Notes: generated by a model from the letters alone, not told the origin. 64,000 bases of DNA from Candidatus Amesbacteria bacterium (GCA_963736875.1 CAVTQH010000002.1:334663-398662); one strand, 5' to 3'; counted from the first letter of the stretch, positions 27,946-63,903 are shown. Numbers and translations: made by a program.

Positions 27946-28464
27946 ATGATTCAGTTCCTGTACCAAAAATTTTCCCGTCCGGTGCTTAAGTTTCTGCTTA
28001 AAAGAAACGGCGGAGATTTGGAGGCTGCCGAGCAGGTGCTTCAGGACACTTTTGTAGCCGCCTTCAAATCTTTTCACGCTTTTCATCACAAATCCGGCTA
28101 TTTTACCTGGTTATGTAAAATTGCTTTGAATAAATTATCCGATTATTATCGTCATCAGGTACACTACAGGTCGAAAATAATCATCCCTTCAATTAATCAA
28201 ATTAATTCTCTTATAGACCCCGCCTTATCGGTAGAAGAAAAATACAGTCTGGATGAACTGCGGTATTCGGTTAATAAGTGCCTGGATCTGATACCGGGGG
28301 AGTACCGCCGGTTATTGCACTTAAAATATTATTTAAAATTATCAGGCCGGGAAATTTGTCTGATTTTGAAGCTTTCCCCCCGCCAGCTGGAAGGCCGTTT
28401 ACACCGCGCCCGTCATGCTCTGGCTAAAGTGATAACCTCCTTTCACCCCGAAATAAAACCATGA
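27946..28464 (+). CDS. RNA polymerase sigma-70 factor, ECF-like
   Basis: Region 2 (FVAAFKSFHAFHHKSGYFTWLCKIALNKLSDYYR) and region 4 HTH (LSGREICLILKLSPRQLEGRLHRAR). Start moved to the ATG at 27946 to avoid divergent overlap with typA. Confidence 0.75.
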   Translation: MIQFLYQKFSRPVLKFLLKRNGGDLEAAEQVLQDTFVAAFKSFHAFHHKSGYFTWLCKIALNKLSDYYRHQVHYRSKIIIPSINQINSLIDPALSVEEKYSLDELRYSVNKCLDLIPGEYRRLLHLKYYLKLSGREICLILKLSPRQLEGRLHRARHALAKVITSFHPEIKP

Positions 28465-29484
28465 CGGATTTGGTCAAACAAATTGCCCCCGGGATATTTT
28501 CTGAAATAAAACAGGCTAAAAACATTCTATTGCATTGCCACCCCAGTCCTGACCCGGACAGTTACGGTTCAGTTCTGGCCATGTACCATTACCTTTCAGG
28601 TATTGGAAAAAAAGTTACTGTGATTGCCGGTGATTCGGATATTCCGCGAATGGCAAAATGCCTGCCCGGAATAGAGAAGATAATTCCTAAAAATTATTTC
28701 GAAATAAATCCCGGGGATTTTGATCTGTTTCTTATTCTGGACTCATCCAGTCTCAGCCAGATATCCAATCTCAAAGAAATCAAATTCCCGCCGAAATTAA
28801 GGACTGTGGTAATCGATCACCATTCTACAAATGATATTTTTTCTGATATCAATTTGGTTGATGCTTCTTACCCTGCCACAGGTCAAATAATTTTCGATCT
28901 TTTTAGGCTTTGGGGTGTAAACATCACCGGGGGTATAGCTATTTGTCTTTTACTGGCAATATATACCGATACCGGCGGACTGAAGTTCGAAAAAACCGCA
29001 TCCGGACACATTTTTAGCAGTTGCAGAACTGGTAAAAATCACTCCCGATTATTGGAAATATATTTTTGAATTTGAAAACCAAAATGATCCCGAAAATATC
29101 TATTATGAAGCTCTTGCTCTTTCCTCAATTAAACTGTTTTTCAACCACAGGGTGGCAATTGCAGTCATTCCTTACAAAGAGTTGCACAAGCGGGGTATCA
29201 GAAAAGTCCATACCGAAAAAACCAAAATTGCCAACCGGCTCAAATCAGTAACCGGATGGGAAATCGGGATTTGTTTTGTGGAAAGAGAAGCAGGAGTGAC
29301 TTTTGCCAGTTTCAGAACCAGAGATTCCTCCAGGTTTGATGTAGCCAAAATTGCCAAAGCCACCGGCTCCGGAGGAGGTCATGCGGGAGCCGCGGGAGCC
29401 ACCTATAAAATACCGTTTACCCGGGCTTTGACGTCTTTGTTGACCACAATCCGTGAAGTATACCCGGAATTGGGCAATCCGTAG
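28461..29484 (+). pseudogene. DHH/DHHA1 phosphoesterase (NrnA-like nanoRNase/pAp phosphatase), frame-shifted
   Basis: The DHH domain (HCHPSPDPDSYGS, DHH) lies in the ORF 28461..29069. The DHHA1 domain (GGGH..AAG) lies in ORF 29152..29484 in another frame. The linker reads through in the second frame from about 29020. The shift lies next to T5/A6 runs. Confidence 0.6.
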
Positions 29485-29489
29485 ACGGA

Positions 29490-29855
29490 TTGGGTATACT
29501 AAATCTAGTGCTGGGATTATTAGTCAAAATAGTATTTCTCGCGGCTGCTGCCGGAGCTTTGGGGGTCGGATATACAAAACTCAGAGGGGGACAGGGAATT
29601 AACTTAAGCGTGGATTCGGTTCTGTCCTCGGTGAAATCCGCAGACATCAGTAGTTTAAGCGGAAAATTAAGCCAGGGCTTGGATGCGCTGGTTACCCACC
29701 CCGGCCGTTCTCCGGTGGTTATGGGTATCGAGATCACCGGTGATAGTCTGAAAACCATTGCTGATACCCTTTCAGGTCTTCCTCCTGACCAGCTGGAACA
29801 AATTAAACAGTATATTTGCCAGCCGGCTACGGAATCTCAAAAGCTAAGAGAGTAA
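29490..29855 (+). CDS. hypothetical protein (N-terminal TM)
   Basis: 121-aa ORF with an N-terminal hydrophobic helix. Confidence 0.4.
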   Translation: MGILNLVLGLLVKIVFLAAAAGALGVGYTKLRGGQGINLSVDSVLSSVKSADISSLSGKLSQGLDALVTHPGRSPVVMGIEITGDSLKTIADTLSGLPPDQLEQIKQYICQPATESQKLRE

Positions 29856-38417: not shown

Positions 38418-39005
38418 TTAAGAAAGTTTCCGGATTTTCTTATCCGCATAGGCCCGATTTAGCTTATCATCCACCCGGTTGGCAAAAAGCACCGTGGATG
38501 TCAGAAGTAACATTACAAATATCCAGATATCCTGCTTCCGGTCGGTGCACCAGGGGCCTCTGGTATTTGCTCCCAGTACCTCACCCGTCGGTAAATTCTC
38601 CGCTTGATCAACCGGTGTCACGTATCTTGCCCTGACGTCAAATCTTGTGATTGCATCCCCTGAAGTAATTTGGTTTCCGTTGGGAGCTGCACCCGTTACA
38701 TAAGCGATCGTTTTATATCCTCCTCCACCGGCTCCCTCCGGAACTTTAAGTCCGAAACCTAGACGTCCGGCCTTTCCGGCTTCGATTGTACCCAGATCAA
38801 AGAGCATACTTCCCAAATAATTATCGGATTGGTCATACAATTTTTGGATCAGTTGAGCGTTCTTTACGGGAACCTCACCGGTGTTTTTCACTTTCATTTC
38901 AAAAGTCACTACGTCACCCGGATAAACAAAACCGTTGACATTATTTGTGGCGGTCAAATCCAGACGCGGGTTGCCGCTGATCAATTTGTCCCGGTAGTTT
39001 TTCAT
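38418..39005 (-). CDS. DUF11 (conserved repeat domain) secreted protein, possibly the C-terminal continuation of the upstream giant gene
   Basis: LDLTATNNVNGFVYPGDVVTFEMKVKNTGEVPV is a DUF11/TIGR01451-type strand pattern. Its ATG lies 1 nt out of frame with the end of gene 38941..41274, inside a GAAAAAC run. Confidence 0.45.
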   Translation of the reverse strand: MKNYRDKLISGNPRLDLTATNNVNGFVYPGDVVTFEMKVKNTGEVPVKNAQLIQKLYDQSDNYLGSMLFDLGTIEAGKAGRLGFGLKVPEGAGGGGYKTIAYVTGAAPNGNQITSGDAITRFDVRARYVTPVDQAENLPTGEVLGANTRGPWCTDRKQDIWIFVMLLLTSTVLFANRVDDKLNRAYADKKIRKLS

Positions 39006-41274
39006 AAACCACAGCCTCTACAAAGAAATTGTTATTGGCAAGATTCGGATCCGGATCCGTCATGGCCACTGAGACATCAAAAGCCACTTCCCGGCTCTTT
39101 CTTTCATCACCGGCCCGGGCTGAAGGAATCAGTCCGGACAAGAAAGCCTGTTTCTGGTCAAATGAAATATCGTCTTTAACTTTTAAGCTGATTGCGAAAT
39201 CTCCCCCGTGCCGGGGAAGAATATTCCCCACTTCCCAGCTGCAGAATGTCTGCTGGCATCCGCCGGTTAACCTTCCGTCATCAGAAACAAAACTCATTCC
39301 GTCAGGCAAATCCATAGTGACTCTGACTCCCTTGGCAATGTCATAACCCGTGTTGTCGTAAGAAAGGGTATAGTCAATAATGTCTCCCGGCTCAACCATC
39401 GTTCTGTTGGCAGAAACTGAGACTCCCACATCCGGGTAGGCAAAAATTGCATCCCCTGACCAGTTGCCCAGAATGTTTATGGTACTCATAAACCATCTCG
39501 ATCCCATGATATTGGTATTTATCAGGTTAAAGAGATTGGCCAGTGCGAAGGCATTTCCGGTTCTGATTTCCGCCCCTCCGGAATTATTGGAAGCCAAATT
39601 TCCTCCGGTATTGGCGCTGACGTTGACATTATTGATAACTTCCGCATAGTTGTTGTTGGCAAAAGTTACCGGCAGTCCGTCGACCGGATCACCGGTATAA
39701 TCCGCCGGAGCCGCGGACGGATCCAGTCCCAATTGCAGGATATTTGTCCCGAGATTCGGTTTCTCAATACTGCCGGGAAGGGACCAGTTCACGATATTTC
39801 CCGTCCACCCTCCCGCGTTATTCAGAATCAGGAAAAACCAGCGGTTACCGATGATATTTAAATTTGCCAGGGTGGTGGAATTGGCTACTGCCACGGCATT
39901 CCCGGTGGTGATCGAACTTTGTCCGTTATCCGCAGAGACATTCTCTCCGGTATTTGCATTTGCACCGACATCATTTTGCACATCGGCCAGATTTTGATTG
40001 GCGTAGGTTACGGGAATCCTGAAAATCAGAGCGGAAGAATCAGGGTCAAAATATTCCGGCCGGGGTAATATCAGGTTGAATTTCTGGCTGGATAAAATAT
40101 TGATAATTCCTATAAAAATCTTGGACCCGAGGATATTGGTATTGACAATATTTGTGACATTGGCTGCCGCCGCTGCATCCCCGGTATTAATCGTTGCGGA
40201 AGCGCTGTCCAAAACGGTGTTGTTTCCGGTATCTGCAGTCGCGTTAATATCATTTGTCAGTGTTGCCTGATTGCTGTTGGTGACGGTAATTTTAATATTC
40301 GGAGTTTGGGGAAAGTTCTCATTAAGATATACATTTCCGTTTTCATCGACGATCAAAAGCTGACTCCAAATCGCATTCAGGTCGATATCTTCGTTTTCCG
40401 TACAGGTCAGATCCAGTGTCAGCACCGAGACTTCAGAGCCGACAATATTGGTATTGATCACATTCAGAACATTAACCAGCGCCTCTGCGTCTCCCGTATC
40501 AATTGCCGATGATCCGGAATTTCCCGTCGCGGCATTGTCTCCGGTAATTGCCGTTACATCGGCATTATCAGCCACATCTGCAATATTGGTATTGCTTACG
40601 TTTAATTCCTGCTCATCGGCCGGAGGAGTCGGATCCGTAACTGTTTCCTCGGGAATTTGGGTCGACATACACGGCAGATCGTCAGAGCACTCCTCAGTCG
40701 GTGAGGGTGTAGCGGTAACAGCAGGTGTAGGAGTTTCCTCGGATGACAAAATCACCGCGTTGGTATTTACTTCGGTATCCGCCAGACCGGTTGCGGCAGC
40801 GTCCCCGGTAGTAATTTCCGCCGATCCGGTAGCATCTGTAATGGTATTCGTTCCGGTTTCCGCATCCGCTTCCAAATCCGCGGATACTATGGCGGCATTA
40901 TCATTAGTGATGTTAATATCTCCCTCGCACGGAGTTTCCCCCTGGGGGGCGCAATCACCGGTTCCCTGGCTGATTTCCCCGGGAATTTCATTGACATTGG
41001 TATTAACCGTGGTATCGGTTTCAGCTGCTGCTCCCGCGTCTCCGGTATCTATCACATTTGTAACCTCCGGTGTCGGTTCCGCTGTGGGAGCGGGAGTTTC
41101 AGTTACTTGAGTCTCTGAAGGCGGGGGAGTCGATTCCGGAGCGCTCGTCGGGGCGGGGGTATCTGTCGGGGTGGCATCTTCCGCCCACGCCACGGGACTC
41201 AGCATGCTCACCGTCATCCACATGACAAGTGTGGCTGTTGAGGCCTTTTTCAAAAATCTGTGACTTACCGCCAT
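38941..41274 (-). CDS. large repetitive secreted surface protein (degenerate N/T/G-rich repeats + C-terminal DUF11 domain)
   Basis: 777 aa with a signal peptide. An acidic PT-rich N-terminus is followed by at least 5 repeats of the pattern A.ANTG.N.A...S...I.TG.A.A.AN..N..NTNI.GS. A DUF11-like domain (VEPGDIIDYTLSYDNTG) is also present. Confidence 0.7.
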   Translation of the reverse strand: MAVSHRFLKKASTATLVMWMTVSMLSPVAWAEDATPTDTPAPTSAPESTPPPSETQVTETPAPTAEPTPEVTNVIDTGDAGAAAETDTTVNTNVNEIPGEISQGTGDCAPQGETPCEGDINITNDNAAIVSADLEADAETGTNTITDATGSAEITTGDAAATGLADTEVNTNAVILSSEETPTPAVTATPSPTEECSDDLPCMSTQIPEETVTDPTPPADEQELNVSNTNIADVADNADVTAITGDNAATGNSGSSAIDTGDAEALVNVLNVINTNIVGSEVSVLTLDLTCTENEDIDLNAIWSQLLIVDENGNVYLNENFPQTPNIKITVTNSNQATLTNDINATADTGNNTVLDSASATINTGDAAAAANVTNIVNTNILGSKIFIGIINILSSQKFNLILPRPEYFDPDSSALIFRIPVTYANQNLADVQNDVGANANTGENVSADNGQSSITTGNAVAVANSTTLANLNIIGNRWFFLILNNAGGWTGNIVNWSLPGSIEKPNLGTNILQLGLDPSAAPADYTGDPVDGLPVTFANNNYAEVINNVNVSANTGGNLASNNSGGAEIRTGNAFALANLFNLINTNIMGSRWFMSTINILGNWSGDAIFAYPDVGVSVSANRTMVEPGDIIDYTLSYDNTGYDIAKGVRVTMDLPDGMSFVSDDGRLTGGCQQTFCSWEVGNILPRHGGDFAISLKVKDDISFDQKQAFLSGLIPSARAGDERKSREVAFDVSVAMTDPDPNLANNNFFVEAVVYEKLPGQIDQRQPASGFDRHK

Positions 41275-41357: not shown

Positions 41358-41464
41358 CTCTGTCCACTAAAAATTAGAAGGACAGATTTGTGTTCACTAC
41401 GGTCCAAGCATTAGCTGTAGATCCGGCATCTCCGGTAATAGCCCAATTGCTACCACGGAAACAT

Positions 41465-41836
41465 CTACCAACTGCTGCCACCTGGAGATTGTCCTCCGGT
41501 GTCAGATTTTGCAATAGACGTATTGTCGATTAAGGCCATGTTATTTACATCACCAGTTGAACGACAAGTTCTGCAATTGACAACATTGGTATTAGCAACG
41601 ACTACTGCAGTTGAATCAGAAACAGCGATTCCAGTTATTAAATAATTAGAACCACCTGTTTGCCAATTGGCTCCGGTTGAGCTTTTTGCTACAGCAGTAT
41701 TATCTACGATGGCGAAATTGTTTGTATCACTGCTGGGCATATAGAATGAACCATATGCAAAAGCTGGGGTGACTGCAGACAGTAACATTGCCCCTGCACC
41801 TGCGATTGCGATTAATCTTTTCATTATTCTATTCAC
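41465..41836 (-). CDS. small secreted protein built from the same repeat motif family
   Basis: Signal peptide MKRLIAIAGAGAMLLSAVTPAFA. The repeats AIVDNTAVAKSSTG...NTNVVN and ALIDNTSIAKSDTG resemble the repeats of 38941..41274. Confidence 0.5.
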   Translation of the reverse strand: MNRIMKRLIAIAGAGAMLLSAVTPAFAYGSFYMPSSDTNNFAIVDNTAVAKSSTGANWQTGGSNYLITGIAVSDSTAVVVANTNVVNCRTCRSTGDVNNMALIDNTSIAKSDTGGQSPGGSSW

Positions 41837-49181: not shown

Positions 49182-49184
49182 GGA

Positions 49185-50258: not shown

Positions 50259-51913
50259 ACTTTTTGATATCGGTACTTTGATCTTACCACCGGCCAGGTG
50301 ATCGACACCAATACCATTGTTAACGAAATTATGCTGATCAGATTTGCCATGCGGTTTAAAGGCGGCTCCGTCAGTCTGGTTTCCACAATATGTTTTCCTG
50401 CAGGTATTTCCATGGTCAGCAATCCGTGGCTGTAAGGATTTTCAGGATCAAATAATTTTACTTCTTTCCCGTCCACATATGCCTTCCACCCCGGCCAGTA
50501 ATGGGTTTTATTACTTAAAATCCCGCCTTGGGGGGTTTCCGTATCCAGTTTGTGATAATTTGTTTTCCAGATAAGCGATTTAACCGTAAAATCTCCCTTT
50601 TCCGTTTTTGAAGCTTCGTACTTATGTAGTTGGTTAAATTCGTCAAAAGGAGAATGCCATACCGGTGTTTCTTCCAAAAGCAGGGTATATGTTCCCCTGT
50701 AACCCAGACTGTCTTGGGCCGGATCGGTCCAAGGTAGATATTGTTGAACTTTTGCATAGTCTTTGGTTGTCAAAACCAGTATTACCCACCCCGCCAAAAG
50801 AATGATCACCTTTTTTTTGTTAGAAATCATTAATTTTGACAAAAAGTAAGTTCCGCAAAAAACCGCCGCAGTGGTTGATACAAATAGCAATCGCCAGGGA
50901 AATTGCACTGCCCTGAGGGGAGTTAGAATTTTCCAAAACGGTAGACTTGATTGCGTCATCATAAATATCGCAATGGCAAACACCGCAAAAAAGTAGATGC
51001 TGAGTTTAAATGCCGCTTCTTTAGCAAATTTTCTTTGTCTGAAAAACCAGATACCCAACCAGCCCAGAAATATTACCAACACCCCGGCTCCCAGCTGAAC
51101 GGACATATTTACCCGACCGGTGGATCCGATTCCCTCATAACTCCACGGCGAATAAATCAGCTGTTTAATCGTCACAAAACCGTTTTTCTCCAGAAAGTAA
51201 TTTTCAATCCGGTCAAGATATGTCAGGTTTTTATACAAAATTGCCGGGAGAATATAAAAAGCTGCATTCAAATATCCCCAGGCTATGGCAGTGATTCTTT
51301 TAATATCAAACCCCGTATATCCGATCCAAATCACCCCGAAAATCAGACCGTAAAAAGGGTGGGCCAAATATCACCAGCGTAATCATCAGAGCTGCTATTG
51401 CGATCGATTTCCAGCTTTTCCGCGGTTTTATCAATCGCCCAGAAGGATAGAGGTAGAATCGTGGCAGCCACCGTTTCTCCGAGTGCCCCCCGGACATAGA
51501 CATTTGCCAGATGATAGGGCAGGTATGCATAAGTAAGTCCACCCAAAAAACTTGGCCATGAACCGAAATGCCGCTTAAGCCAGAGATAGGCAAAAAAAGC
51601 ACTGAACGGAAAGGACATGGCCAGAACCAGTTTAAATGCCGTAACCGGGTCGACTCCCGAAAGCATTACAGCCGAAGTCAGATAATAAGGTAGGGTATAG
51701 GAAAAGGTAAAAGTGGGCTGTCCCAGACCGTAATTCAGTCTTTTTGCCCACCGGGGAGGGAAATTACCGTCTTTTAATGCGTTGAAAAATTCCTACCGAT
51801 TTAAATACGGTTGCTTCCCCGTCGTGTCCGGAAATCATTCCCGGATGCCTCAGGGCTTTATAAGCCGGAAAGGTTAATCCCAAAAAAAGCAAAAAGATCA
51901 GAAGATTTTTCAC
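50255..51913 (-). pseudogene. membrane protein of the PTPS-related/YfhO-like family, interrupted by two 1-nt frame changes
   Basis: The N-terminus (GTG at 51913, VKNLLIFLLFLGLTFPAYKALRHPGMISGHDGE), the middle (ORF 51343..51666, YAYLPYHLANVYVRGALGE) and the C-terminal part (50255..51367) lie in three frames. The junctions sit at T5/A5 runs. Paralog of 59317..61009. Confidence 0.5.
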
Positions 51914-51947: not shown

Positions 51948-52661
51948 ATGATTAGCCAAATGATAGGGGAGCTTTCAGTCTTTTTTCCCTGCTACAACGA
52001 GCAGGATAATATCGAACAAACGGTAAAAAAAGCCAAACCCGTTTGTAAAAAATATTTCAAAAACTGGGAAATGCTTTTGGTCAACGACGGCTCCAAAGAC
52101 AAAACAGGGGAGATAATTGATAGTCTGGCAAAAAGTGACCGAAATGTAAAACCTATTCATCATCATCCCAACCGGGGTTACGGCGCGGCTTTAAAAAGCG
52201 GATTTTATTCCGCCAAATATCCCTGGGTGGCATTTACGGATGCCGACGGCCAGTTTGATTTTAAGGAGATTTCGGAGTTTATTGCCACTCAGGAAAAGAC
52301 CAAAGCCGATCTGGTAATCGGGTATTACCGTCACCGGCAGGTACCTTTTTCCCGGAAACTGAATTCTTTCATGTGGCAGGTGGTGGTATTTCTGCTTTTC
52401 GGTCTCAGAGTCCGCGATATCGATTGCGGTTTCAAGCTTATTTCCACCAGGGTTTTTAATACCATTCCCAAACTGGAATCGGAAAGAGGAGCCTTTATCA
52501 GCAGTGAATTATTAATCAAAGCCAGAAAGGCCGGATTTAAGATTGTGGAAATTCCCGTCACCCACTATCCGAGAGTTGTCGGTCACGGCACGGGTGCGGA
52601 TTTAAACGTCATTATTAAAAGTTTTCTGGATCTTTTCCGTTTATGGTTCAAACTGCATTAA
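51948..52661 (+). CDS. GT2 glycosyltransferase (polyprenol-phosphate sugar transferase type)
   Basis: FFPCYNEQDNI, LVNDGSKD, DADGQFD. Confidence 0.8.
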   Translation: MISQMIGELSVFFPCYNEQDNIEQTVKKAKPVCKKYFKNWEMLLVNDGSKDKTGEIIDSLAKSDRNVKPIHHHPNRGYGAALKSGFYSAKYPWVAFTDADGQFDFKEISEFIATQEKTKADLVIGYYRHRQVPFSRKLNSFMWQVVVFLLFGLRVRDIDCGFKLISTRVFNTIPKLESERGAFISSELLIKARKAGFKIVEIPVTHYPRVVGHGTGADLNVIIKSFLDLFRLWFKLH

Positions 52662-52739
52662 AACGCCGGGAAATAATCTGCCTGGCAGTTATTCTGTTGG
52701 TCTGCAGCGTTTCTGCGCCTTTACAAAATCCCGGATTAC

Positions 52740-54107
52740 ATGACTTTTCTGGGAGATGAAGGACGGGATGCGCTGGTGATGCGAAATATTGTTTTGGGAA
52801 GGCATTTTCCCCTGATCGGCCCCGGCACCTCCATCGGCAATATGTATCTGGGTCCTCTCTATTATTATCTGGTTGCCCCGTCGCTTCTTATTTCCGGCTT
52901 TTCTCCTCTCGGCCCGGCAGTTGAAGTGGCTGTCATCGGGATTCTGACGGTCGGTCTGCTGTGGTGGATAGGCAGGCAATGGTTCGGACCATTCGGAGCT
53001 CTTTTAATATCGGCTCTTTATGCAGTTTCCCCGGTGGTGATCACTTATTCCCGCTCTTCATGGAATCCGAATATCATGCCGTTTTTTGCCTTGCTTACAA
53101 TCTACAGTCTGTGGCAGGTATGGCGCAATCACCGCTGGCCCTGGCTGATCGTCTCAGCCGTCGCTTTCGCTTTTGTTCTTAACTCTCATTATTTAGGTCT
53201 GTTACTCGCTCCCACAATTGGAATATTTTGGCTGATTACCGCTAAAAAATCTTTAAAGACCTCAATCGTGTCCTTCCTATTACTATTACTACTACTATCC
53301 CCCCTGCTTATTTTTGACATGCGCCACAATTGGACAAATTTTAATGCCCTTAAAGCTTTTCTTACGGACCGCCAGCAGACTGTAAATTTCAAAGCCTACA
53401 AAGCCATACCCAATCTTTGGCCTATATGGGCGGATATCAACACCACTCTGCTTGCCGCCGGAAATATTCAGTTGGGATTTATCACGTCCGCGTTGCTGGT
53501 TCTATTACCGGTTCTGATACTGGTTAAACAATTAAAGTCGAAAAATATCTCACCTGAGTTAATGTTGGTTATGGTTTGGATAGGGTTTGGTCTTTTAGGA
53601 CTCGGCCTTTACAAGCAGCATATTTATGCCCATTACTACGGTTTTATTTTTCCCGCCCCCTTTCTGCTTTTAGGTTCTATTTTTAAATATTCCCATCGTC
53701 TTCTAAAATATCTTTTAGCCGGATTTATACTTTTCCTTCTGCTGTTTAATTTAATAAACAACCCCTTTCGCTCCTCGCCCAATCTGCAGCTGGAGCGGAC
53801 TTCGCAAATAGCCTTAGTAATAAACCAACAGGCTCTGGGGCAACCTTTTAATCTGGCCCTGATTGCCAAAACCAATTATGATGCCGGATACCGCTATGCC
53901 CTGCAATTATTGGATAGTCCTTACTTTACTATCCATGACCAACTGGCTGAACAGTTATTTGTCATCTGCGAAATTGACTGTGAACCGATAAATAATCCGC
54001 TGTGGGAAGTCGCCGCTTTCGGGTGGGCAAAAATTGATAAGATTTGGGAATTCCCCTGGGGGGGAGTCAAGCTTTATCGGTTAATTCATAATCCGTCCGG
54101 ATCATGA
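52740..54107 (+). CDS. GT-C membrane glycosyltransferase (ArnT/PMT-like), tandem paralog 1
   Basis: N-terminal motif GDEGRDALV...LIGPGTSIGNMYLGPLYYYLVAP, shared with the next two genes. About 12 TM helices. Confidence 0.6.
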   Translation: MTFLGDEGRDALVMRNIVLGRHFPLIGPGTSIGNMYLGPLYYYLVAPSLLISGFSPLGPAVEVAVIGILTVGLLWWIGRQWFGPFGALLISALYAVSPVVITYSRSSWNPNIMPFFALLTIYSLWQVWRNHRWPWLIVSAVAFAFVLNSHYLGLLLAPTIGIFWLITAKKSLKTSIVSFLLLLLLLSPLLIFDMRHNWTNFNALKAFLTDRQQTVNFKAYKAIPNLWPIWADINTTLLAAGNIQLGFITSALLVLLPVLILVKQLKSKNISPELMLVMVWIGFGLLGLGLYKQHIYAHYYGFIFPAPFLLLGSIFKYSHRLLKYLLAGFILFLLLFNLINNPFRSSPNLQLERTSQIALVINQQALGQPFNLALIAKTNYDAGYRYALQLLDSPYFTIHDQLAEQLFVICEIDCEPINNPLWEVAAFGWAKIDKIWEFPWGGVKLYRLIHNPSGS

Positions 54108-55579
54108 AAAAAACATTTATCATAACCATTATTTTGGCCCTGGCCTTGTTTTTACGTACATATCGGGCTTCCGTCCTGACCGGCTTTTATTTTGACCAGG
54201 GAAGGGATGCCAAAATAATTTGGGATTTATGGCATTCGCACAAATTTTTCCTCATCGGTCCCACTACCGGAATAGAAGGCATTTTTCTCGGCCCCTTTTA
54301 TTATTATCTGATTGCGCCTTTCTATCTTTTGGGAAACGGGAATCCGGTCGCCGCGGCAGTCGGCCTGGCCTTAATCTGCACGATCGGGATTATTGTCATC
54401 TATGAAATCGGCCGGAAGTACTTTAATCCGGTTGCCGGTTTTATTACCGCAATACTGGCGGCCTGTTCTCTGAGTATGGTCCAGTCTCACCGCTGGCTGT
54501 CCAACCCCACTCCTTTATATTTGTCTTCCGCCCTGGCCCTGCTGCTGCTTCTCAAAATTGTCTTCGGTTCCAAATCCGGATGGGTCTGGTTTCTCTTTGG
54601 TTTAATGCTGGGGGTCAGCCTTCATTTCGAAGCGGCTTCTGCCGTATTTTTCCTGCCCGCCACCCTTCTGATTTTTTTGTGGTTCAGAAAAGACATAGTC
54701 TGGCAATTTAAAAACCTGATTCATCTGGCTTTTGCATTCCTGATCACTCTGCTTCCCCAGATAATTTTTGATCTCAGGCACGACCATATCCTGGCTTTGG
54801 CCTTCGGGAAGTTTCTGATAACGGAGAAAAGTTTCACCCCGTCCGGAAGCGGATTTATTTTGGATCGCCTGAACTTTTATTATCAGTCATTTTCGAGTCT
54901 TATCACCCTGGATAAAACCCCGGCAATTGTGATTTCCTTATTATTACTGCTGTTAACTGTTATTGTTTGGCGCTTTATACCCAAAAAACCGCTGACGGTC
55001 GTCCTCATTTGGCTTCTTACTCCCATGTTCTTTTTGCTGCTGTACCGGGGGAATTACGGTTATGTCTGGAGCTATTACTTTACCGGAGTATATTTGGTTT
55101 TTATGCTTTTAACCGGTGTGGTTTTATCCTATGCATATACCTGTCCCCGGATTCCTTTCCGTAAAGGTTTGGTGGGTGTTTTAGTCTCTTATTTTCTTGT
55201 CTGGAATGGTTTTCATCTTTATCATTACCTGCGCGCCAATCCGGACGGACCGGAAGCCATAATGCTGGGTTCGTCTTTACCGGCTGTTGACTGGGTTTTT
55301 AAGGATGCCGGCGACCGGTCTTTCAATGTTGACGTTTATGTTCCTCCGGTGATATCCCATGCCTATGATTACCTGTTTCTCTGGCGGGGTGATACCCGTT
55401 ACCGCCGTCAGCCGTCTTCCGACCTTCAGCCGCTGCTTTACACTCTTTATGAAGTCGATCCTCCACATCCCGAGCGTTTGGAAGCCTGGCTGACGCGTCA
55501 GGCCGGTATAGCCGTTCCCAAAACCAGTATTAAATTCGGCGGGGTTACGGTAGACCGGCGTCAGCGGATCAATAAATGA
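54104..55579 (+). CDS. GT-C membrane glycosyltransferase (ArnT/PMT-like), tandem paralog 2
   Basis: FDQGRDAKI...LIGPTTGIEGIFLGPFYYYLIAP. Overlaps its neighbours (ATGA). Confidence 0.6.
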   Translation: MKKTFIITIILALALFLRTYRASVLTGFYFDQGRDAKIIWDLWHSHKFFLIGPTTGIEGIFLGPFYYYLIAPFYLLGNGNPVAAAVGLALICTIGIIVIYEIGRKYFNPVAGFITAILAACSLSMVQSHRWLSNPTPLYLSSALALLLLLKIVFGSKSGWVWFLFGLMLGVSLHFEAASAVFFLPATLLIFLWFRKDIVWQFKNLIHLAFAFLITLLPQIIFDLRHDHILALAFGKFLITEKSFTPSGSGFILDRLNFYYQSFSSLITLDKTPAIVISLLLLLLTVIVWRFIPKKPLTVVLIWLLTPMFFLLLYRGNYGYVWSYYFTGVYLVFMLLTGVVLSYAYTCPRIPFRKGLVGVLVSYFLVWNGFHLYHYLRANPDGPEAIMLGSSLPAVDWVFKDAGDRSFNVDVYVPPVISHAYDYLFLWRGDTRYRRQPSSDLQPLLYTLYEVDPPHPERLEAWLTRQAGIAVPKTSIKFGGVTVDRRQRINK

Positions 55580-57088
55580 AAAATATTCTAATTCCGGTAC
55601 TTCTCATAGCCCTGATTCTCGGTCTGATACTTCGCGGCTATCAGTTTAAAGAGAGATTTTTGTATGCACATGACAACGATCTGGCCGGCTGGATTGTTAA
55701 AGATATTGTCATCGATCACCATCCTGCGTCTAATCGGTCAGGAAACTTCTGCCAAAGGGATTTTTATCGGCCCTCTCTTTTATTATTCGCTGATTCCGTT
55801 TTACCTGATTACCGGCATGGATCCGATTGGATCACGGATATATTCCCTGATTATCGGTTTGACTGCCATCTGCAGTCTGTATTTTGTCGTCAACAGGCTT
55901 TATGGCCGCCGCCCGGCCGGCATTGCCTCTCTCATTTATGCGGTTTCGTTTCTAATTTCCCAGACTGAACGGGAAGTCGTCCCCACCACTACCGTCATGT
56001 TGTGGTCAATCTGGTTTTATTATTCAGTCAATCTTATTTTCCGGGCAAAAAAGTCCGGTCTGCTTTTAGCTTCCTTTTTACTGGGTTTGGTCTGGCATAT
56101 CAATTTAGCCCTGATTCTGCTTTCTCCTCTGGTAATCCTGGGTGTATTCCTAAATCACAAAAAATATCTTCTCAGAGATTTTTTCAAACCGGTCATCATT
56201 CTGTTAATTATGTCACTGCCACTGTTTATTTTTGAAATCCGTCATAACTTTTTACAGACCAGATCGCTTTTTGGTACAGTTTTTGAAAATTCCGCCGTTT
56301 CAGGCATCCCTGCGGTCTCTTTTTCGGACAAAGTTTCACACGTGGTAAGTTTTGCTTTCAAAAACGCCACCCGGATATTTTTTATTCCGGAATTTGTTTT
56401 TCCTGAAAATATTATTCCCGTATTTCTCACAATCATGCTGCTGGTACTGGTGATCACCCGCAGGATCCCCGGATATACAGGAACAATTTTTATTTTATGG
56501 ATGGGTCTGTATATTCTTTTCTTTACTCTTCACCCCATAAATCTTTCCGAATATTACTTAAACGGGATGAATATATTTTGGCTGATTATTGCCGCTGTCA
56601 CTATGGGCAGAATCCTGCCCAAATTTATATCCGCCGCAGTTCTTTGTTTTCTTATTTTTTACAACCTGAATATGTTTCTTTCTTCCCCGATAAACGCCAG
56701 CGGATATTTACCGAAGAAGGCATTGATGGAATTTATCTATACTGATGCCGCAGCGCACGATTATCCCTGCGTCGCCTTTTCCTACATCACCAACCCCGGT
56801 TATCAGTTCGGATACCGTTATTTTATTTATCTGAAGGGTTTGAAAACCGCTCCGCCTTCATCCGGAGCCCCGGTTTATTCGGTGGTCTTTCCGCATTCCT
56901 TGGTTGACCGGATAGATAAATCTTTCGGAGCCATAGGGCTGGTTTTACCCAGATATTCCCGCTATGATCAGGAGGCGGTACAAGTCAGTTGTTCGGGTGA
57001 AAACTCGAATCTGACCGATCCCATGTTCGGCTTTACGATACCAAGTAAATATGTCCGTGTATCTTTCAGTTATCGTTACCAACTATAA
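55576..57088 (+). pseudogene. GT-C membrane glycosyltransferase, tandem paralog 3, N-terminus frame-shifted
   Basis: The N-terminal 50 aa (ORF 55576.., FLYAHDNDLAGWIVKDIVIDHHP) matches the paralog motif. The remainder (ORF 55664..57088, LIGQETSAKGIFIGPLFYYSLIPF) is in the +1 frame. The junction lies near 55727-55738. Confidence 0.5.
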
Positions 57089-57797: not shown

Positions 57798-59320
57798 ATA
57801 TGCCAACAAAATCCCGGCTTAATCCCAGATACCGGATTGTTCTGTTAATCACAGCCGGAATTCTCGTACTTGCTGCCGTCATCCGTTTTACTCATCTGAC
57901 TCTGCTGCCGGTTTTTGCCGATGAATCGATTTACCTTCGCTGGGCTCAGGTCATGCGGGCGGAATCCACTTTGAGATTTTTACCTCTTTCGGACGGTAAA
58001 CAGCCTTTATTTATGTGGGCGGTGATTCCGTTTATGAAATTTATATCCGACCCCTTATTGGCCGGCAGGGTATTTTCCGCGCTTTGCGGTTTGTTTACCA
58101 CAATTGGAATCGGGGTGGCGGGTTATATCCTTTTTTCCAACTTCAGGCTGGCTTTATCCGCATCTCTTTTATGGGCGGTTATTCCCTATGCCGTATTTTT
58201 TGACCGGATGGCTTTGGCCGATGGACTCCTCGCCATGTTTATGGTCTGGACTTTCGTATTTTCCGTCCTGTCACTTCGGTATCTGCGGTGGGATTTGTCC
58301 ATGCTTGCGGGATTTACTTTGGGCTTCGCCTGGCTGACCAAATCTCCGGCCATATTTGCTATGGTTTTGATCCCGGCGGGTTTATTGCTGGTGGAGTGGA
58401 AACATCTCAGGGGGATCAGAAAGGTTGTTCCTCTGATTCTGATCGGTACCACTTTTATTATCGGATTTGCCATGTATAACATTCTGCGTTTGGGACCCGA
58501 GTTTCATCAGATAGCTTTAAGAAACCGGGATTATGTTTTTCCGTTATCTGAGGTTATCTCCCACCCCACTGATCCGTTGATACCCCATTTACGCGATGCA
58601 ATCGGTTTTTACCTGTATCTTGTCACTCCGCTGGGCTTGGGTTTTGCTCTTTTGGGAATAGCCGAGGGAGGTTTGCGCCATTGGCGTCAGCGGTTGATTT
58701 TACTGCTGTGGTGGCTGGTACCGGTTATTTCCCAGTCATTTGTAGCCAAAGCGTTTACTGCCCGGTATCTGCTGTTTACGGTTCCGTTTTCGCTGATACT
58801 GGCTTCCCATGGATTATGGCATTTCGGTGACCGGACTCAAAAACACTTCCTTTCCCTGACAGGTTTGATATTAGTCGTCTGTTTAAGTTTGGGATATGAC
58901 TATTTGCTTTTAACTGATCCTCAAAAAGCTCCGTTGCCGCGGATTGAACGTTCGGGATATATGGAGGAGTGGACGGCAGGTTACGGCCTGAAAGAGGCAG
59001 CCGGTCAAATCAGAAGCAGTGCGGCTTCAGGGCCGGTAGTTATCGGTTCCGAAGGTTACTTCGGGACTCCTTTCAGTGCCATGCAAATGTACTTAAATGA
59101 TGTTTCAAACGTCCGGATAGTCGGATTAGGAACGGTTTTAGGTTATCCCGATCCCAAGCTTACTTCAGCCCGGGCGGAAAATCAGATTTTTGTAGTATTC
59201 AATTCCACCCGCATTCCCCGCGATCCGGCAGACTTGGGTTACGAAATTCTGGGTTCCTACCCCAAAGCCGTCCGTCCGGACGGCTCCCGTGAATATCTGC
59301 TTCTGATGAAATTGAAATGA
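57794..59320 (+). CDS. ArnT/PMT-family GT-C glycosyltransferase (COG1807-like)
   Basis: The first-loop motif FADESIYLRWAQ (a DE motif) follows TM1. About 11 TM helices plus a C-terminal soluble domain. Confidence 0.7.
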   Translation: MNMPTKSRLNPRYRIVLLITAGILVLAAVIRFTHLTLLPVFADESIYLRWAQVMRAESTLRFLPLSDGKQPLFMWAVIPFMKFISDPLLAGRVFSALCGLFTTIGIGVAGYILFSNFRLALSASLLWAVIPYAVFFDRMALADGLLAMFMVWTFVFSVLSLRYLRWDLSMLAGFTLGFAWLTKSPAIFAMVLIPAGLLLVEWKHLRGIRKVVPLILIGTTFIIGFAMYNILRLGPEFHQIALRNRDYVFPLSEVISHPTDPLIPHLRDAIGFYLYLVTPLGLGFALLGIAEGGLRHWRQRLILLLWWLVPVISQSFVAKAFTARYLLFTVPFSLILASHGLWHFGDRTQKHFLSLTGLILVVCLSLGYDYLLLTDPQKAPLPRIERSGYMEEWTAGYGLKEAAGQIRSSAASGPVVIGSEGYFGTPFSAMQMYLNDVSNVRIVGLGTVLGYPDPKLTSARAENQIFVVFNSTRIPRDPADLGYEILGSYPKAVRPDGSREYLLLMKLK

Positions 59321-61009
59321 AAAAAGATTTGATATTAATTCTTCTGCTGCTTCTTCCCGCCGTTGCCTGGCTTTTTCAGCCGGGATATCTTTCCATGCAC
59401 GATGATCTTCAGGCTTTCCGGCAGAAAGCTTTAGACGAATGTTTCCGGGACCGGCAGATCCCCTGCCGCTGGGTTTCAGAAATGGGTTATGGTTTCGGAT
59501 ATCCGCTTTTTAATTACTATCCCCCCCTGCCTTATTTAATCGGTCAGCCGTTCCGATTTTTGGGTTTCCAGTATCTTGATGTGGTCAAAATTGTCGGGGT
59601 AATCGGATTCGGTATTTGTGCATTAAGCATGTACTTTTTGGGCAGGCAGTTTTGGGGTAGGGGAGGAGGATTGATTTCTTCCCTGGTCTATACATATGCG
59701 CCTTACCATTCGGTGGATTTTTACGTCCGCGGAGCCATGAACGAATTTTGGGCCATGGCCATTTTTCCCGCCATTTTCTACACTTCTTACCGGCTGATAT
59801 CCGGCCGGAATAATAAATGGATTCCCCTGCTTTCATTATCAGTTGCGGCTTTGATGCTCTCGCACAATCCCATGCTGATGATATTTACCCCGGTATTGCT
59901 TGCCTGGTGCGTGTTTTGGCTTTGGAAATCGCGTTCCTGGAAACGATTTACACGCTCTGGCAGTTTCTGCTTTCTGGTCACTTGGTTTGGCCGCCTTTTT
60001 TACTCTTCCGGTAATTATCGAATCGCGTTTTGCCCATGTGGAGACCCTTACCATCGGCTACTTCAATTTTTTGGCCCATTTTCTTAACTTAAAGCAAATC
60101 TTTTTGCGCATCAATTGGGGTTACGGAGCATCGGTTTTGGGTTCGGGTGATGAAATGAGCTTTGCTTTGGGCTATCTGCAGTGGATCCTGCCGGCTCTGG
60201 TATTAATTTCTGTGTTATTTATCAAAAAACTCCGCGAAAATAAATTATTAATCCTATTACTATTACTGTTTACTGTTACTGCTTTATTCCTGTCCCATTA
60301 CCGCTCAACTCCCATATGGCTCAAATTTAAACCTCTGGAATTTCTCCAGTTTCCCTGGCGTTTTCTTACTTTGGCTGTCTTTTCAGCATCGTTTTTGTCC
60401 GGTGCAGTAATATTTGTAAATAAAAAAATACTTTCCCTGTTACTGTTACTGTTACTGTTACTTAATGCCAACTACTTCCGCCCCCGGGTTTGGTATCCGG
60501 ACATGACCGACGCTTCAAAATTTTCCGGGGACTCTCTCCGTTTGCAGGTTACAGCCAGCATTTTTGACTATCTGCCGATTTATGCACCGCTTCCGCCTCC
60601 CAATCCCGCCGGAGGTGATCTGGGAATAACCGGCGGGGAAGGGACTTTCACCCGGCTGGCCAAACGCTCCAATTTTCAGCAATACGAGGCGGACATCACA
60701 ACTTCAAAAGCAACGATAGAGCTGCAGACATTTTATTTTCCCGGCTGGCGGGTGTGGCTGGACGGAAAAGAAGTAAAAATCGATCCCTCCCGTGACCCGC
60801 TTCTCGGGCGGATGCAGATTGATGTCACTTCCGGCCGTCATTTGGTTACCGCCCGTTTTACCAACACCCCCATCCGAACTTTTGGTAACCTGCTGTCACT
60901 GGTCTCCTGGTTAATCCTCCTTGGCTGTTTGATTCCCAGAAAATCGGTGTACAATGGCAGGTATGTCTTTACCCGAAGTCAGGTGTCATCGAATAACGAT
61001 AAAAGCTGA
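59317..61009 (+). pseudogene. membrane protein of the PTPS-related/YfhO-like family (paralog of 50255..51913), frame-shifted
   Basis: ORF 59317..60087 (YAPYHSVDFYVRGAMNEF) and ORF 59900..61009 (QFPWRFLTL...FYFPGWRVWLDGKEVK) lie in different frames and overlap by 188 nt. Both halves are homologous to the halves of the 50255..51913 gene. Confidence 0.5.
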
Positions 61010-61259: not shown

Positions 61260-62735
61260 ATGGACGCGGAAGTGACGCTGGGGGATGTGGACCTGGCCAC
61301 AGTTAAAGCCAGGTCGGTATCGGGAATTGTGACTTTGATCAGCCGGTCTTTTGTGATTCAGCTGGTATCAACATTAGGATTTTTTCTGCTTTCGGTGTTT
61401 CTGGCCCGCCCGGAAATCGGATTGTTCATCGCCGTCAATGAATTAGTCTCCATTCTGGGATATTTTTCCGACATCGGTCTGGCAGCATCCTTAATCCAGA
61501 AAAAGGATAAAATTACTCTGACCGACCTGCGGACCACTTTCACTCTTCAGCAGATTCTGGTTCTAGTACTATTACTATTTACTATTACCATTTCCCCCTG
61601 GTTATTCAGCTACTATCATGTTTCCGGCGGGGGAGTCTGGCTGTTTTTCAGTCTTTTAACGGCTTTTTTTCTGGCATCTTTAAAAACTATTCCTTCGGTG
61701 GTTCTGGAGCGCCAGCTGCGGTTTGAAATTTTGGCCTTTGTGGAAATTATTGAGACTCTGATTTTTTATCTGGTAGCTGTGACACTCGCCTGGCAGGGGA
61801 GGGGAGTTGCCTCTTACGCCTGGGCTGTTCTTCTCAGGGGTTTTATCGGTACATCCCTGATTTATTTTCTGGCTCCCTGGAAAATCGGTCTGGCCATATC
61901 CAAAACCAGTCTCAGGTCATTATTATCCTTCGGTCTCCCCTATCAGATCAATACTTTAATGGCGGTCGTAAAAGACAGATTCTTAAATATTTTCCTGTGG
62001 AAAATAATCGGCGCTGACGGGGTGGGAATTATCGGTTGGGCCCAGACCTGGTCCCAGAAACCTCTGCGCTTTATCATGGACAATGTCACCAAGGTTACTT
62101 TCCCCGGTTTTGCCAGGCTTGCCGATCATCCGCAGGAACTGAAACAGGGAATAGAAAAAACGCTTTTTTTCATTTCTCTCGTAACTTTCCCCATAGTCGG
62201 CGGTCTGGCGGTACTTGCCCCCTCCCTCGTCGGATTGATTCCCAGATATTCCAAGTGGGAAGTAGCTTTGATACCCTTGGCTTTGTTTTGTTTCAACAGC
62301 GCCTGGGCTGCCGTATCCACTCCCTTAACCAATACTCTGAATGCTTTAGGCCGGGTAAAAATAAATACTTACCTGATGATTATGTGGACGGCACTTGCCT
62401 GGATACTGACCCCTTACATGGCGGTCAGATTTGGTTTTGTAGGTGTGGCTTATGCTTCAGCTTTAATTTCTTTAACCTCGGTTATTCCCGTAATTATTAT
62501 TAAGCGTCTGACTCATTTCAGTTTGTATTTATCATTTATCCGGCCGGCAGTAGCAACTATGGTTATGTTGACCGTGTCTTATCTGTTTACCGTTTCTTTT
62601 ACCGTTACTATTTATAATTTAATTCTGAACGTCATCATATCCGGACTGGTCTACGGTTTAGTTATTTACGGTTTGGTGGGTCCGGCCCTTTTAACAGATG
62701 TCCAAAAACTTTTGGCCGTTTTTAAAAACAAATAG
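61260..62735 (+). CDS. Wzx-like oligosaccharide flippase (MOP superfamily polysaccharide biosynthesis protein)
   Basis: 491 aa with about 14 TM helices. The N-terminal region is typical of polysaccharide biosynthesis (Polysacc_synt) proteins. Confidence 0.7.
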   Translation: MDAEVTLGDVDLATVKARSVSGIVTLISRSFVIQLVSTLGFFLLSVFLARPEIGLFIAVNELVSILGYFSDIGLAASLIQKKDKITLTDLRTTFTLQQILVLVLLLFTITISPWLFSYYHVSGGGVWLFFSLLTAFFLASLKTIPSVVLERQLRFEILAFVEIIETLIFYLVAVTLAWQGRGVASYAWAVLLRGFIGTSLIYFLAPWKIGLAISKTSLRSLLSFGLPYQINTLMAVVKDRFLNIFLWKIIGADGVGIIGWAQTWSQKPLRFIMDNVTKVTFPGFARLADHPQELKQGIEKTLFFISLVTFPIVGGLAVLAPSLVGLIPRYSKWEVALIPLALFCFNSAWAAVSTPLTNTLNALGRVKINTYLMIMWTALAWILTPYMAVRFGFVGVAYASALISLTSVIPVIIIKRLTHFSLYLSFIRPAVATMVMLTVSYLFTVSFTVTIYNLILNVIISGLVYGLVIYGLVGPALLTDVQKLLAVFKNK

Positions 62736-62791
62736 CCACTGGTGGCTGATTATCTTGGGTTCGGTTATTTGGTCTTTGACCATGGTAAAGA

Positions 62792-63903
62792 GTGGGTCTG
62801 ACCTACTCTTACGGAGTAGGTTTTTGGGGTCCCAACGGTCATGACGGCGTCTGGCATTTGTCCTTAATTGAAAGTCTTTCCCGGGGAAGTTTGGAAATGC
62901 CGGTTTTTGCCGGAGAACTGATCAGAAATTATCACATCGGATTTGATCTCTTGCTGGCTTTAATTCATCGGCTTTCTTTTATTCCGGTAAGTGTTTTGTA
63001 TTTTCAGCTGATCCCTCCCCTGCTGGCTTTCGGGATTGGTTTCTCTGTCTGGAAATTTATGCTTTTATGGACCAAAAGCCGTTCGGCTGCCATGTGGGGT
63101 TTGTTTTTTGTTTATTTTGGCGGCAGTTTCGGCTGGCTGGTAAATTTGCTTCGTGGTGCGGGTTTGGGCGGAGAGTCTATGTTCTGGGCTCAGCAAAGCA
63201 TCTCCACACTGATAAATCCCCCGTTTGCCCTGTCACTTTTAATAATATTCTTTGTATTGTATTTAATCCAAAAACCCATTTCCGGAAAAAAATTAATATT
63301 AGTCTCGCTTCTTATCGGTTCCCTGGTCATTGGTCAAAATTTATGCCGCGATTTTGTTTCTGCCGGGATTGGCATTGTCCGCTCTTTACAATCGTAAATT
63401 ACTCAAGCTTTTTACTTTTGTCTTCTCTCTTTTCCCTGCTTTTTTACCTACCGTTTAACCGTCTGGCCTCGTCCCTGATAGTTTTTCAGCCCTTCTGGTT
63501 TATCGAAAACATGCTTGCCCTGTCAGACCGTTTTTTCTGGCCCCGGCTTTACAGCGCGATGATTGTCTACAAAACCACCCGTAACGTGATTAAATTTATT
63601 CCCGCTTACAGTCTGGCGATATTGATTTTTCTGGCAGGTAATCTGGGTGTCCGCATGTTGGGTTTGGTTAAAATCAGAGAGCTGAAAAAAACCGACCCGG
63701 TAAATATTATTTTGTGGGTCATAGCTCTCCTGGGTTTTATTTTCCCCTTATTATTTATCCAGCGGGGAACCCCCTGGAATCCCATCCAGTTTTTCTACTA
63801 TTCGCAATTTGCTCTCGGTCTGTTTGCTGCCCGGATTATATCCAAATTAAACATCAAATACGGGATATTAGTCGTTACTGTTAACCATTCCTACCACTAT
63901 TAA
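62792..63903 (+). pseudogene. polytopic membrane protein (possible polymerase/ligase of the glycan pathway), split over three frames
   Basis: ORF 62792..63397 covers the N-terminal TM helices. A third frame between about 63300 and 63440 reads KIYAAILFLPGLALSALYNRKLLKLFTFVFSLFPA. ORF 63067..63903 carries the C-terminal TM helices, and its first 100 aa are junk. The second junction lies at a T6 run (ctgcttttttacc). Confidence 0.4.

Follow-up and report, generated by a model that had tools for sequence, protein, structure and literature searches.

Frame disruptions in nine genes

Several genes in this part of a Candidatus Amesbacteria genome are split between reading frames, and the question is whether the splits belong to the organism or to the deposited sequence. 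The window, by which we mean the whole 64-kb stretch of DNA analyzed, was compared by blastx and frameshift-aware alignment with ORFs from 45 related Microgenomates/Amesbacteria loci, which revealed 14 frame slips in nine genes. A sequence-only reading had named five genes whose halves are homologous but lie in different frames, and a possible sixth. The same alignments bore out each of the five, and every case it counted was real, but its total of five to six genes was too low; it had missed a superoxide dismutase (SOD) outside its range, a small secreted repeat protein, and the N terminus of a glycosyltransferase (GT-C1). A single extra base accounts for 13 of the 14 slips, and the remaining event (51414-25) is a 2-base contraction of an A run or one more extra base. 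A +1 shift is needed in all 14 (two-sided p ~1.2e-4). Frameshift-aware alignment permitting both directions found no -1 event, and neither a single-base deletion nor a large deletion occurs among the 14. The clustering of events exceeds chance, with none in positions 1-25500, where 9.3 are expected (P ~9e-5), and 10 of the 14 in a glycosylation cluster at 51.3-64 kb (P ~4e-5). The first 25 kb carries ten housekeeping genes with full-length Pfam matches.

Comparison with orthologs, which the sequence-only reading had proposed as a check, showed that intact orthologs cross every junction, in dozens of relatives; in the genome and metagenome contigs of relatives that were examined, a single ORF runs across the junctions. 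Repair of each event, by removal of one base (two A's were instead restored at 51415 in the dN/dS run), gave an ORF of ortholog length with no internal stop in all nine genes. Repaired and relative lengths are 195 and 195 amino acids for SOD, 340 and 338 to 341 for NrnA, 951 and 953 for the surface protein, 552 and 552 for the PTPS_related membrane protein paralog 1 (PTPS1), and 487 and 486 for GT-C1. Neither nonsense codons nor deletions were found in the ~4,170 repaired codons. The relatives used for DNA-level placement are 84 to 87% identical and show the form of the intact gene rather than the sequence of this strain; eight events were placed at the protein level only, and their exact positions are ambiguous. 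Fragments were called as genes by the source (P0016, P0123, P0127, and P0130-P0132).

Genes outside the glycosylation cluster

In the Fe/Mn SOD gene (25524..26112, plus strand), the sequence CGCGATGGAT at 26041-26047 contains one base too many, and a three-frame view places the C-terminal 25 residues (DYLDAWWNVINWPEVGRLLTV) in the +1 frame. The source gene call is a truncated 187-aa product (P0123), while the repaired protein has the 195-aa length of its closest relatives, P0139 (82% identity) and P0140. Exact look-ups of five variants of the repaired SOD found none in the protein collection, where the closest intact SOD is 82% identical and no near-identical one is present. The NrnA-like DHH/DHHA1 phosphoesterase gene (28461..29484, plus strand) has one extra base within 28990-29005, and Pfam places DHH and DHHA1 in different frames. 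The shift is seen in frameshift-aware alignments to 8 relatives. Its interval includes an A6 run at 28990-95, and the CCG/CAT positions score equally well or better. Homologs are mostly 338 to 341 aa long, and the closest intact homolog in the protein collection is 68% identical, with no near-identical one present.

The CLIPPER/DUF11 surface protein gene (38418..41274, minus strand), which encodes an N-terminal signal peptide and a C-terminal membrane anchor, is split into ORFs of 777 and 195 aa. Homologs of 914 to 1004 aa align end to end with one +1 shift. This is the possible sixth case that the sequence-only reading had put near 39003: one real shift does span both ORFs, but it is not at an A5 run. 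The A5 run at 39000 was rejected as the junction, the best placement lying 30 nt downstream, and two intact relatives give 38963-38970 (coding strand GCG[T]CTG). Alignment to L100 (intact, 953 aa) and L101 shows one extra base specific to the window, all other indels in this gene being multiples of 3. In the small secreted repeat protein gene (41374..41824, minus strand), one extra base at 41493-41495 (coding strand GGA[G]GAC) leaves the last 40 residues out of frame in the alignment to L100; after repair, the 149-aa protein ends in ...AWTVVNTNLSF versus ...AWTTVNTNWSY in the relative.

Three other apparent disruptions were rejected. A frame switch at 45.5-45.8 kb arose from out-of-frame translation of the stop-to-stop ORFs of relatives, and the LigT-like gene has a proper start at 45792. 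The same-frame ORF triplet at 42054-43895 is not one gene, since two of the three are an unrelated Crp-like regulator and an SPFH protein. From the triplet at 11418-12902, the one ORF scanned matched nothing in Pfam, and the translations of its two partners look unrelated.

Genes in the glycosylation cluster

Three events fall in PTPS1 (50255..51913, minus strand), for which JGI contig L048, carrying the intact 552-aa ortholog P0129, served as the reference for DNA alignment. At 51792-94, an extra A at 51794 gives GT[A]GGA; the position of about 51740 in the earlier reading needed correction. At 51414-25 the window has A4 and the relative A6, which reflects loss of 2 bases or, alternatively, one added base together with natural loss of a codon. 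At 51366-69 the window has TTT and the relative TT. A two-shift model outscores a one-event model. GT-C1, a GT-C (PMT_2/ArnT-like) glycosyltransferase (paralog 1; 52643..54107, plus strand), has an extra C at 52701-02 (GGT[C]TGC) that puts its first ~20 residues (MVQTALKRREIICLAVILLV) out of frame with the rest, which delays the start of the called ORF to 52740. The repaired protein aligns with the 486-aa ortholog on L048. GT-C paralog 3 (55576..57088, plus strand) has an extra C at 55722-24 (CAT[C]CTG); alignments to ~20 relatives change frame at 55722-55727, and in DNA comparison with L050, which has an intact 488-aa ortholog, the window is longer by just one base.

In the second PTPS_related membrane protein (paralog 2; 59317..61009, plus strand), the surplus base lies at 59952-54, within TTTACACGCTCTG, and the junction contains no homopolymer. 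More than 50 relatives show a switch from frame 1 to frame 2, located by position scan, and the repaired ORF is 563 aa. The terminal polytopic membrane protein gene (62698..64000, plus strand), which runs off the window, has four extra bases, at 62794-98 (GTGGGTC), 63326-35 (CTGGTCATTGG), 63408-19 (a T5/T4 region), and 63873-78 (GTCGTTACT). The interval given by the earlier reading, 63300-63440, needed correction. The blastx frames switch in the order 1, 2, (3), 1, 2, and in position scans a two-insertion model of the two middle events was better than a model with one base missing. Residues 1 to 433 of the repaired protein are matched continuously by 49 metagenome relatives of at most 67% identity, which gives protein-level confirmation at a distance too great for placement in DNA. 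An aligner also suggested a frameshift at ~62740; this was rejected, the N terminus MSKNFWPF...TMVKSG being continuous in one frame.

Homopolymer context of the junctions

The sequence-only reading had placed most junctions at A5-6 or T5-6 runs, the error profile of homopolymer-sensitive sequencing. This did not hold. Only 2 of the 14 intervals, in NrnA (A6) and in the third terminal-gene event (T5), overlap a run of at least 5, against 1.3 expected from random intervals (P=0.38), and enrichment was likewise absent at thresholds of 3, 4, and 6. Among the insertions verified in DNA, the extra bases are an A between T and G (51794), a C between two T's (52702), a T between G and C (38964), a G between A and G, a C turned to CC, and a TT turned to TTT. 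The first three are in no run, and five of the six DNA-placed insertions lie outside any run or within a run of 2 or 3 bases.

Frameshifts in nanopore assemblies classically stem from homopolymer indels (PMC9262707), and some features here would fit such miscalls: the runs inside the NrnA and terminal-gene intervals, the A4 at 51415 where the intact relative has A6, and three DNA-verified insertions that lengthen a run of 1 or 2 bases (T2 to T3, C to CC, and G to GG). Homopolymer error would, however, place indels inside runs, typically of at least 5, with contractions common, and neither pattern was found; the window has 548 runs of at least 5, yet the expected -1 contractions are missing, and 51415 is the sole event that resembles a homopolymer length error or contraction. 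We therefore consider homopolymer-length miscalls unlikely as the main cause.

Consensus error versus gene decay

Whether the genes are nonetheless decaying can be judged from the selection acting on them. Repaired PTPS1, despite its three events, has a dN/dS of 0.096 and GT-C1 one of 0.107 (dS ~0.65), both within the 0.04 to 0.19 of intact neighbors, which argues against pseudogenes. In true pseudogenes, dN/dS would approach 1 and stops or deletions would accumulate; neither is seen here. Natural bacterial gene decay is expected to have a deletion-biased mutation spectrum, the opposite of that in the window. The split genes resemble frameshift pseudogenes of genome reduction in being broken by frameshifts and, in several cases, surface related, but in the window selection is not relaxed, the direction is uniform, and several events fall in one gene without other decay.

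Very recent genuine frameshifts, yielding nine true pseudogenes or frameshifted alleles of the dominant strain, would agree with the deposited sequence and with the source gene calls, which are the fragments. Gene loss occurs in small-genome symbionts, and genes for surface glycosylation often vary or can be dispensed with. Recent frameshifts, however, sit poorly with genes that carry three and four events and still keep exact ortholog length, with the clean repaired codons, with disruption of SOD and NrnA as well, and with the intact state of all the relatives. All events run in one direction (p ~1e-4), which is unnatural for real mutations, and mutation has no reason to favor synonymous third positions. 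We regard this explanation as improbable.

Purifying selection, exact restoration of ortholog length, the lack of nonsense codons or larger deletions, and the uniform shift direction indirectly favor artefact over gene decay, and to that extent the preference of the sequence-only reading for artefactual indels over true pseudogenes is the best-supported reading. Judged from the sequence, the disruptions are probably errors in the deposited consensus of this metagenome-assembled genome (MAG), and the nine genes are most likely intact in the organism. The source contig, from an Amesbacteria-like Patescibacteria bacterium, is 441,639 bp long. In all nine, an edit of 1 or 2 bases restores the full-length ortholog with no other defect. 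Small consensus indels that split genes are documented in long-read assemblies (PMC9262707; preprint 10.1101/2021.08.23.457338). The likeness, judged from the deposited consensus sequence alone, extends to single-base indels splitting conserved genes (IDEEL-type truncation; proovframe), to repair of length guided by homologs, and to fragments called separately by annotators. The long-read indels lie at homopolymers, whereas here there is no such enrichment, essentially all events are insertions, and they are clustered in ~60% of the window. Homopolymer deletions also dominate nanopore consensus errors (PMC9262707), and the insertion-only profile of the window counts against the artefact reading in this respect.

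Recoding and related explanations

One mechanism could in principle serve all 14 +1 events if the genes were functional as written, through programmed +1 ribosomal frameshifting or quadruplet decoding. Programmed +1 frameshifting is known from the CUU-UGA-C site of prfB, and +1 sites are widespread in Euplotes; as in those systems, shifting by +1 would put every gene here back in frame. Yet no motif, shifty stop or slippery, is common to the 14 sites, and the frameshifts are conserved in no relative. Six sites are placed exactly, and at these, re-pairing of the P-site codon in the +1 frame is impossible (GCG to CGT, GGA to GAG, ATA to TAT, GTA to TAG, GTC to TCT, and CAT to ATC). Neither a stop nor an evident pausing codon comes next, and the 0-frame stays open for 10 to 70 codons. 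The RF2 gene in the window is a single uninterrupted ORF without the classic +1 site, and scans of the window found no tRNA (ARAGORN) and no RNA element (Rfam). An altered genetic code was rejected as well: the presence of RF2, with its SPF motif, makes UGA a stop. Such recoding is highly improbable. So, to the same degree, are transcriptional slippage and phase variation at repeats, since the repeats are too short. Phase variation uses long simple repeats or homopolymers, usually of at least 7 units, whereas no junction run exceeds A6, which itself belongs to an ambiguous case, runs at most junctions are 1 to 3 bases long, and only two intervals touch a run of more than 4. Real extra bases read through by a site-independent +1 system, such as quadruplet decoding of XYZ+N at particular codons, would leave the uniform direction and the preserved purifying selection as their traces; this too we find barely credible.

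A candidate origin of the extra bases

Within the preferred reading of consensus error, the inserted bases suggest a specific origin, an idea formed after the data had been seen. All six DNA-placed insertions have the form XY[Z1][Z2] at a third codon position, the two alternatives being synonymous codons (GCG/GCT, GGA/GGG, ATA/ATT, GTA/GTG, GTC/GTT, and CAT/CAC); against a null of 0.417 per event, this post hoc test gives p ~0.005. Co-assembled strains may differ by a synonymous third-position SNP at each affected site, and a consensus or polishing step may then write both alleles in series instead of one. Such merging would explain why the errors are insertions, why they are indifferent to homopolymers, why they fall at third codon positions, and why they concentrate in the cell-surface glycosylation cluster, plausibly the region of greatest divergence between strains. 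The 51415 event (A4 versus A6) is a poor fit.

An independent assembly of run ERR12040022 is of the same organism (99.7 to 99.8% identity) and differs by SNPs without indels. Of its 12 SNPs, nine alter a third codon position synonymously, which shows that strains do vary in exactly this way. The regions matched by its Logan contigs L001 and L002, 31.9-35.6 kb and 47.9-49.9 kb, contain no junction, and there the contigs agree with the window without indels. Exact look-ups of eight proteins (window ORFs at 54104, 28461, 59317, 51948, and 61260, P0016, TypA, and others) found no independent contig covering a junction, and JGI contig L049 (53.9-58.1 kb) was unusable as a reference, with 155 gap openings and many deletions.

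Consequences for the deposited genome

The frame disruptions are most likely an assembly or consensus artefact rather than a real biological feature, and as such of low biological interest. The genes for SOD, NrnA, the surface proteins, and glycosylation are most likely whole in the organism, and the deposited genome under-reports them as fragments or late starts. An error signature of this kind, in which insertions alone occur, without regard to homopolymers, at synonymous third positions and grouped where strains vary, is useful to know in MAG curation; polishing or quality filters directed at homopolymers would miss such errors. If both SNP alleles were truly merged, consensus building on mixed strains would have a specific kind of failure that can be checked for. 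The fragment proteins are already in public protein collections as separate clusters.

Frame slips in the window

The nearest genome relatives of one glycosyltransferase (GT-C) protein from the window are 58% identical to it and all belong to the Candidatus Amesbacteria group (Microgenomates); the source is a bacterium of the Candidate Phyla Radiation, near this group. Stop-to-stop ORFs were collected from 45 related loci, the whole window was compared with them by blastx, and frameshift-aware protein-to-DNA alignment, with skips of one or two bases permitted, was then applied. In all, 14 events, each a single frame slip, were identified in nine genes. The sequence-only reading had named five genes with halves in different frames, and all of these switch frame relative to many intact homologues. 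One event lies in the NrnA-like gene (28990-29005), three in PTPS_related paralog 1 on the minus strand (51792-94, 51414-25, and 51366-69), one in GT-C paralog 3 (55722-24), one in PTPS_related paralog 2 (59952-54), and four in the terminal membrane gene (62794-98, 63326-35, 63408-19, and 63873-78). At closely spaced pairs, removing two single bases outscores models in which one base is missing or two bases are removed together, by margins of 134 to 256 across 5 to 6 references.

The possible sixth case of the earlier reading, a CLIPPER/DUF11 surface protein (38418-41274, minus strand), is real, but its optimum falls at 38963-70 rather than at the A5 run at 39000. Homologues of 914 to 1004 amino acids span its 777- and 195-residue ORFs end to end with one +1 shift, and a library-wide search matched the shorter ORF to their C termini. 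Three further genes had been missed. The superoxide dismutase gene at 25524, outside the range first considered, has an event at 26041-47, where its conserved C terminus (DYLDAWWNVINW...) falls into the +1 frame. GT-C paralog 1 has an extra base at 52701-02 that places its first ~20 residues in another frame, and a small secreted repeat protein (41374-41824, minus strand) shifts at 41493-95. In the public protein collection, several window proteins are found on a single NCBI/ENA contig of 441,639 bp and nowhere else, and its listed products include frameshifted fragments (P0016, P0123, P0127, and P0130-P0132); the annotation of the deposited metagenome-assembled genome therefore already splits these genes.

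Placement against intact relatives

Through protein clusters, close relatives with intact genes were located in metagenomes from JGI and ENA, at 84 to 87% nucleotide identity. Contig L048 carries intact PTPS_related paralog 1 (552 amino acids) and GT-C paralog 1 (486 amino acids), L050 an intact GT-C paralog 3 (488 amino acids), and L100 and L101 the 953-residue surface protein and the small secreted protein. In the well-aligned genes, the frame-changing differences are those at the junctions, and all remaining coding indels are multiples of three; for the small secreted protein, the DNA alignment was gappy and the junction was set by protein comparison. On the coding strand, the insertions read GT[A]GGA at 51794, ATA[T]TTG at 51367, GT[C]TGC at 52702, CAT[C]CTG at 55723, GCG[T]CTG at 38964, and GGA[G]GAC at 41494. 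The event at 51415, A4 in the window versus A6 in the relative, instead fits a conventional homopolymer contraction.

Homopolymer runs and non-random patterns

Most junctions had been thought to coincide with A5-6 or T5-6 runs, the profile of homopolymer-sensitive sequencing. For each event, we recorded the longest run touching the interval of top-scoring placements. Only the intervals of the NrnA-like gene (A6) and of the term-d event in the terminal gene (T5) touched runs of five or more, 2 of 14, whereas the mean for random intervals of the same sizes was 1.3 (P = 0.38); with the threshold set at 3, 4, or 6, the junction intervals likewise showed no enrichment. In the NrnA-like gene, placements outside the run score equally well or better. 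The proposed error profile is therefore not evident in the sequence, and homopolymer miscalling as the main cause does not pass this enrichment test. Within GT-C paralog 1, a 7-base G/C run at 54054-54060, versus 4 in L048, adds one Gly codon in frame; no longer G/C run lies near the cluster, and this one may be a length error that happens to preserve the frame.

The events are nonetheless far from random. A +1 correction is needed at every one of the 14 (two-sided p about 1.2e-4), and no -1 events were found, although the aligner permitted them. No event was detected at positions 1-25,500, against 9.3 expected from the density elsewhere in the window (P about 9e-5); long ORFs there are uninterrupted, and ten housekeeping genes have full-length Pfam matches. 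Ten of the 14 fall within the glycosylation cluster at 51.3-64 kb (P about 4e-5). Furthermore, all six DNA-placed insertions have the form XY[Z1][Z2] on the third codon position, with Z1 differing from Z2 and the two codons synonymous (GCG/GCT, GGA/GGG, ATA/ATT, GTA/GTG, GTC/GTT, and CAT/CAC). When insertions were simulated at random in intact genes of the window, 41.7% showed this pattern, which gives p about 0.005 for six of six; the test was devised after the pattern had been seen, and the result is suggestive only.

Decay, recoding, or artefact

Genuine recent pseudogenisation, which the earlier reading had offered as the alternative to assembly indels, is disfavoured. After repair, PTPS_related paralog 1 has 552 residues, as in its relative, and GT-C paralog 1 has 487 versus 486. 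Purifying selection is retained, with dN/dS (dS about 0.65) of 0.096 and 0.107, respectively, and 0.04 to 0.19 in intact neighbours. Across the nine genes after repair, about 4,170 codons in total, there are no stop codons and no larger deletions. Because single genes have taken three or four independent hits with no other decay, in one direction and on synonymous positions, the disruptions are most probably an assembly artefact, of the kind that a systematic consensus error yields, rather than mutation and drift. That part of the original proposal is the best supported; its homopolymer mechanism is not supported.

Programmed +1 frameshifting that decodes the genes is attractive only for the uniform direction of the events. 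The sites share no common motif and are conserved in no relative, P-site re-pairing is impossible at the six exact sites, and no 0-frame stop lies nearby. Many bacteria have a programmed +1 frameshift site near codon 26 of the release factor 2 gene, but here that gene (29877-30953, plus strand; PCRF and RF-1 domains, SPF motif) consists of one continuous ORF without the classic site. Its presence also points to UGA being read as a stop in this organism. No tRNA or Rfam elements were found in the window. The chance that the extra bases are real is small.

As to the source of an artefact, two short Logan contigs from an independent assembly of run ERR12040022 represent the same organism (99.7 to 99.8% identity); over 5.7 kb they differ from the window by 12 SNPs and by no indel. 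Nine of these SNPs are synonymous third-position changes, and thus at least one of the samples sequenced contains close strains that differ at such sites. We infer that, at some strain-SNP sites, a consensus or polishing step may have retained both alleles in tandem, which would explain why the events are insertions, why homopolymers are not favoured, and why third codon positions are hit. The clustering would also follow if strain divergence were higher in the surface-glycosylation cluster. Adjacent double substitutions relative to Logan contig L002 at 32466-32467 (TT>CC) and 34615-34616 (CG>AA) may be multi-nucleotide variants between strains.

Small consensus indels that fragment genes are well documented in long-read assemblies and usually blamed on homopolymers (PMC9262707; proovframe preprint 10.1101/2021.08.23.457338), and indels and frameshifts occur in strain-mixed nanopore assemblies (PMC8302730). 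The frame slips described here fall in the same general class as the long-read cases but lack their usual homopolymer signature. The main value is a lesson for curation; biological interest is otherwise low.

Other features of the locus

The large surface-glycosylation cluster (47300-64000) is largely syntenic with relatives. Three or more GT-C (PMT_2-like) paralogues lie in it, along with another large membrane gene (57794-59320), a pair of PTPS_related membrane proteins, two GT2 genes, one GT2-GtrA fusion, and an uncharacterised 491-residue polytopic membrane protein (61260-62735). NrnA lies immediately upstream of the GT-C genes in several relatives, though not in the window. GT-C paralog 3 is short of 19 nt at its 3' end (57039-57088) compared with the intact L050 orthologue; with them the relative's stop codon and spacer are lost, so that the ORF overlaps the following GT2 gene, which starts at 57051, by 38 nt. 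Contig L049 (JGI 3300043305, Ga0484316_00023020), the same locus matching 53904-58078, has 155 gap openings, nearly all missing bases, and gene calls that are fragments of 29 to 164 residues; these truncated products share a 90% protein cluster with the window's intact GT-C paralog 2. The contig resembles long-read data that received essentially no correction.

Elsewhere, a 578-residue surface protein (9597-11333, plus strand) contains two near-identical segments of ~170 residues (...PVPTVPPPGGQTL.FTPTDDAVIYASNPNANAGNGIAVRIDNSPVEH...SREGSNPPQLVVT), which reflect either a tandem duplication of very recent origin or a repeat artefact of the assembly. For two adjacent fn3-domain genes, the 3' part of each (36196-36657 and 37318-37773) matches the other's counterpart in relatives at ~80% identity, which points to tandem paralogues. 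A sortase gene (37722-38315) directly adjoins the CLIPPER/DUF11 surface protein.
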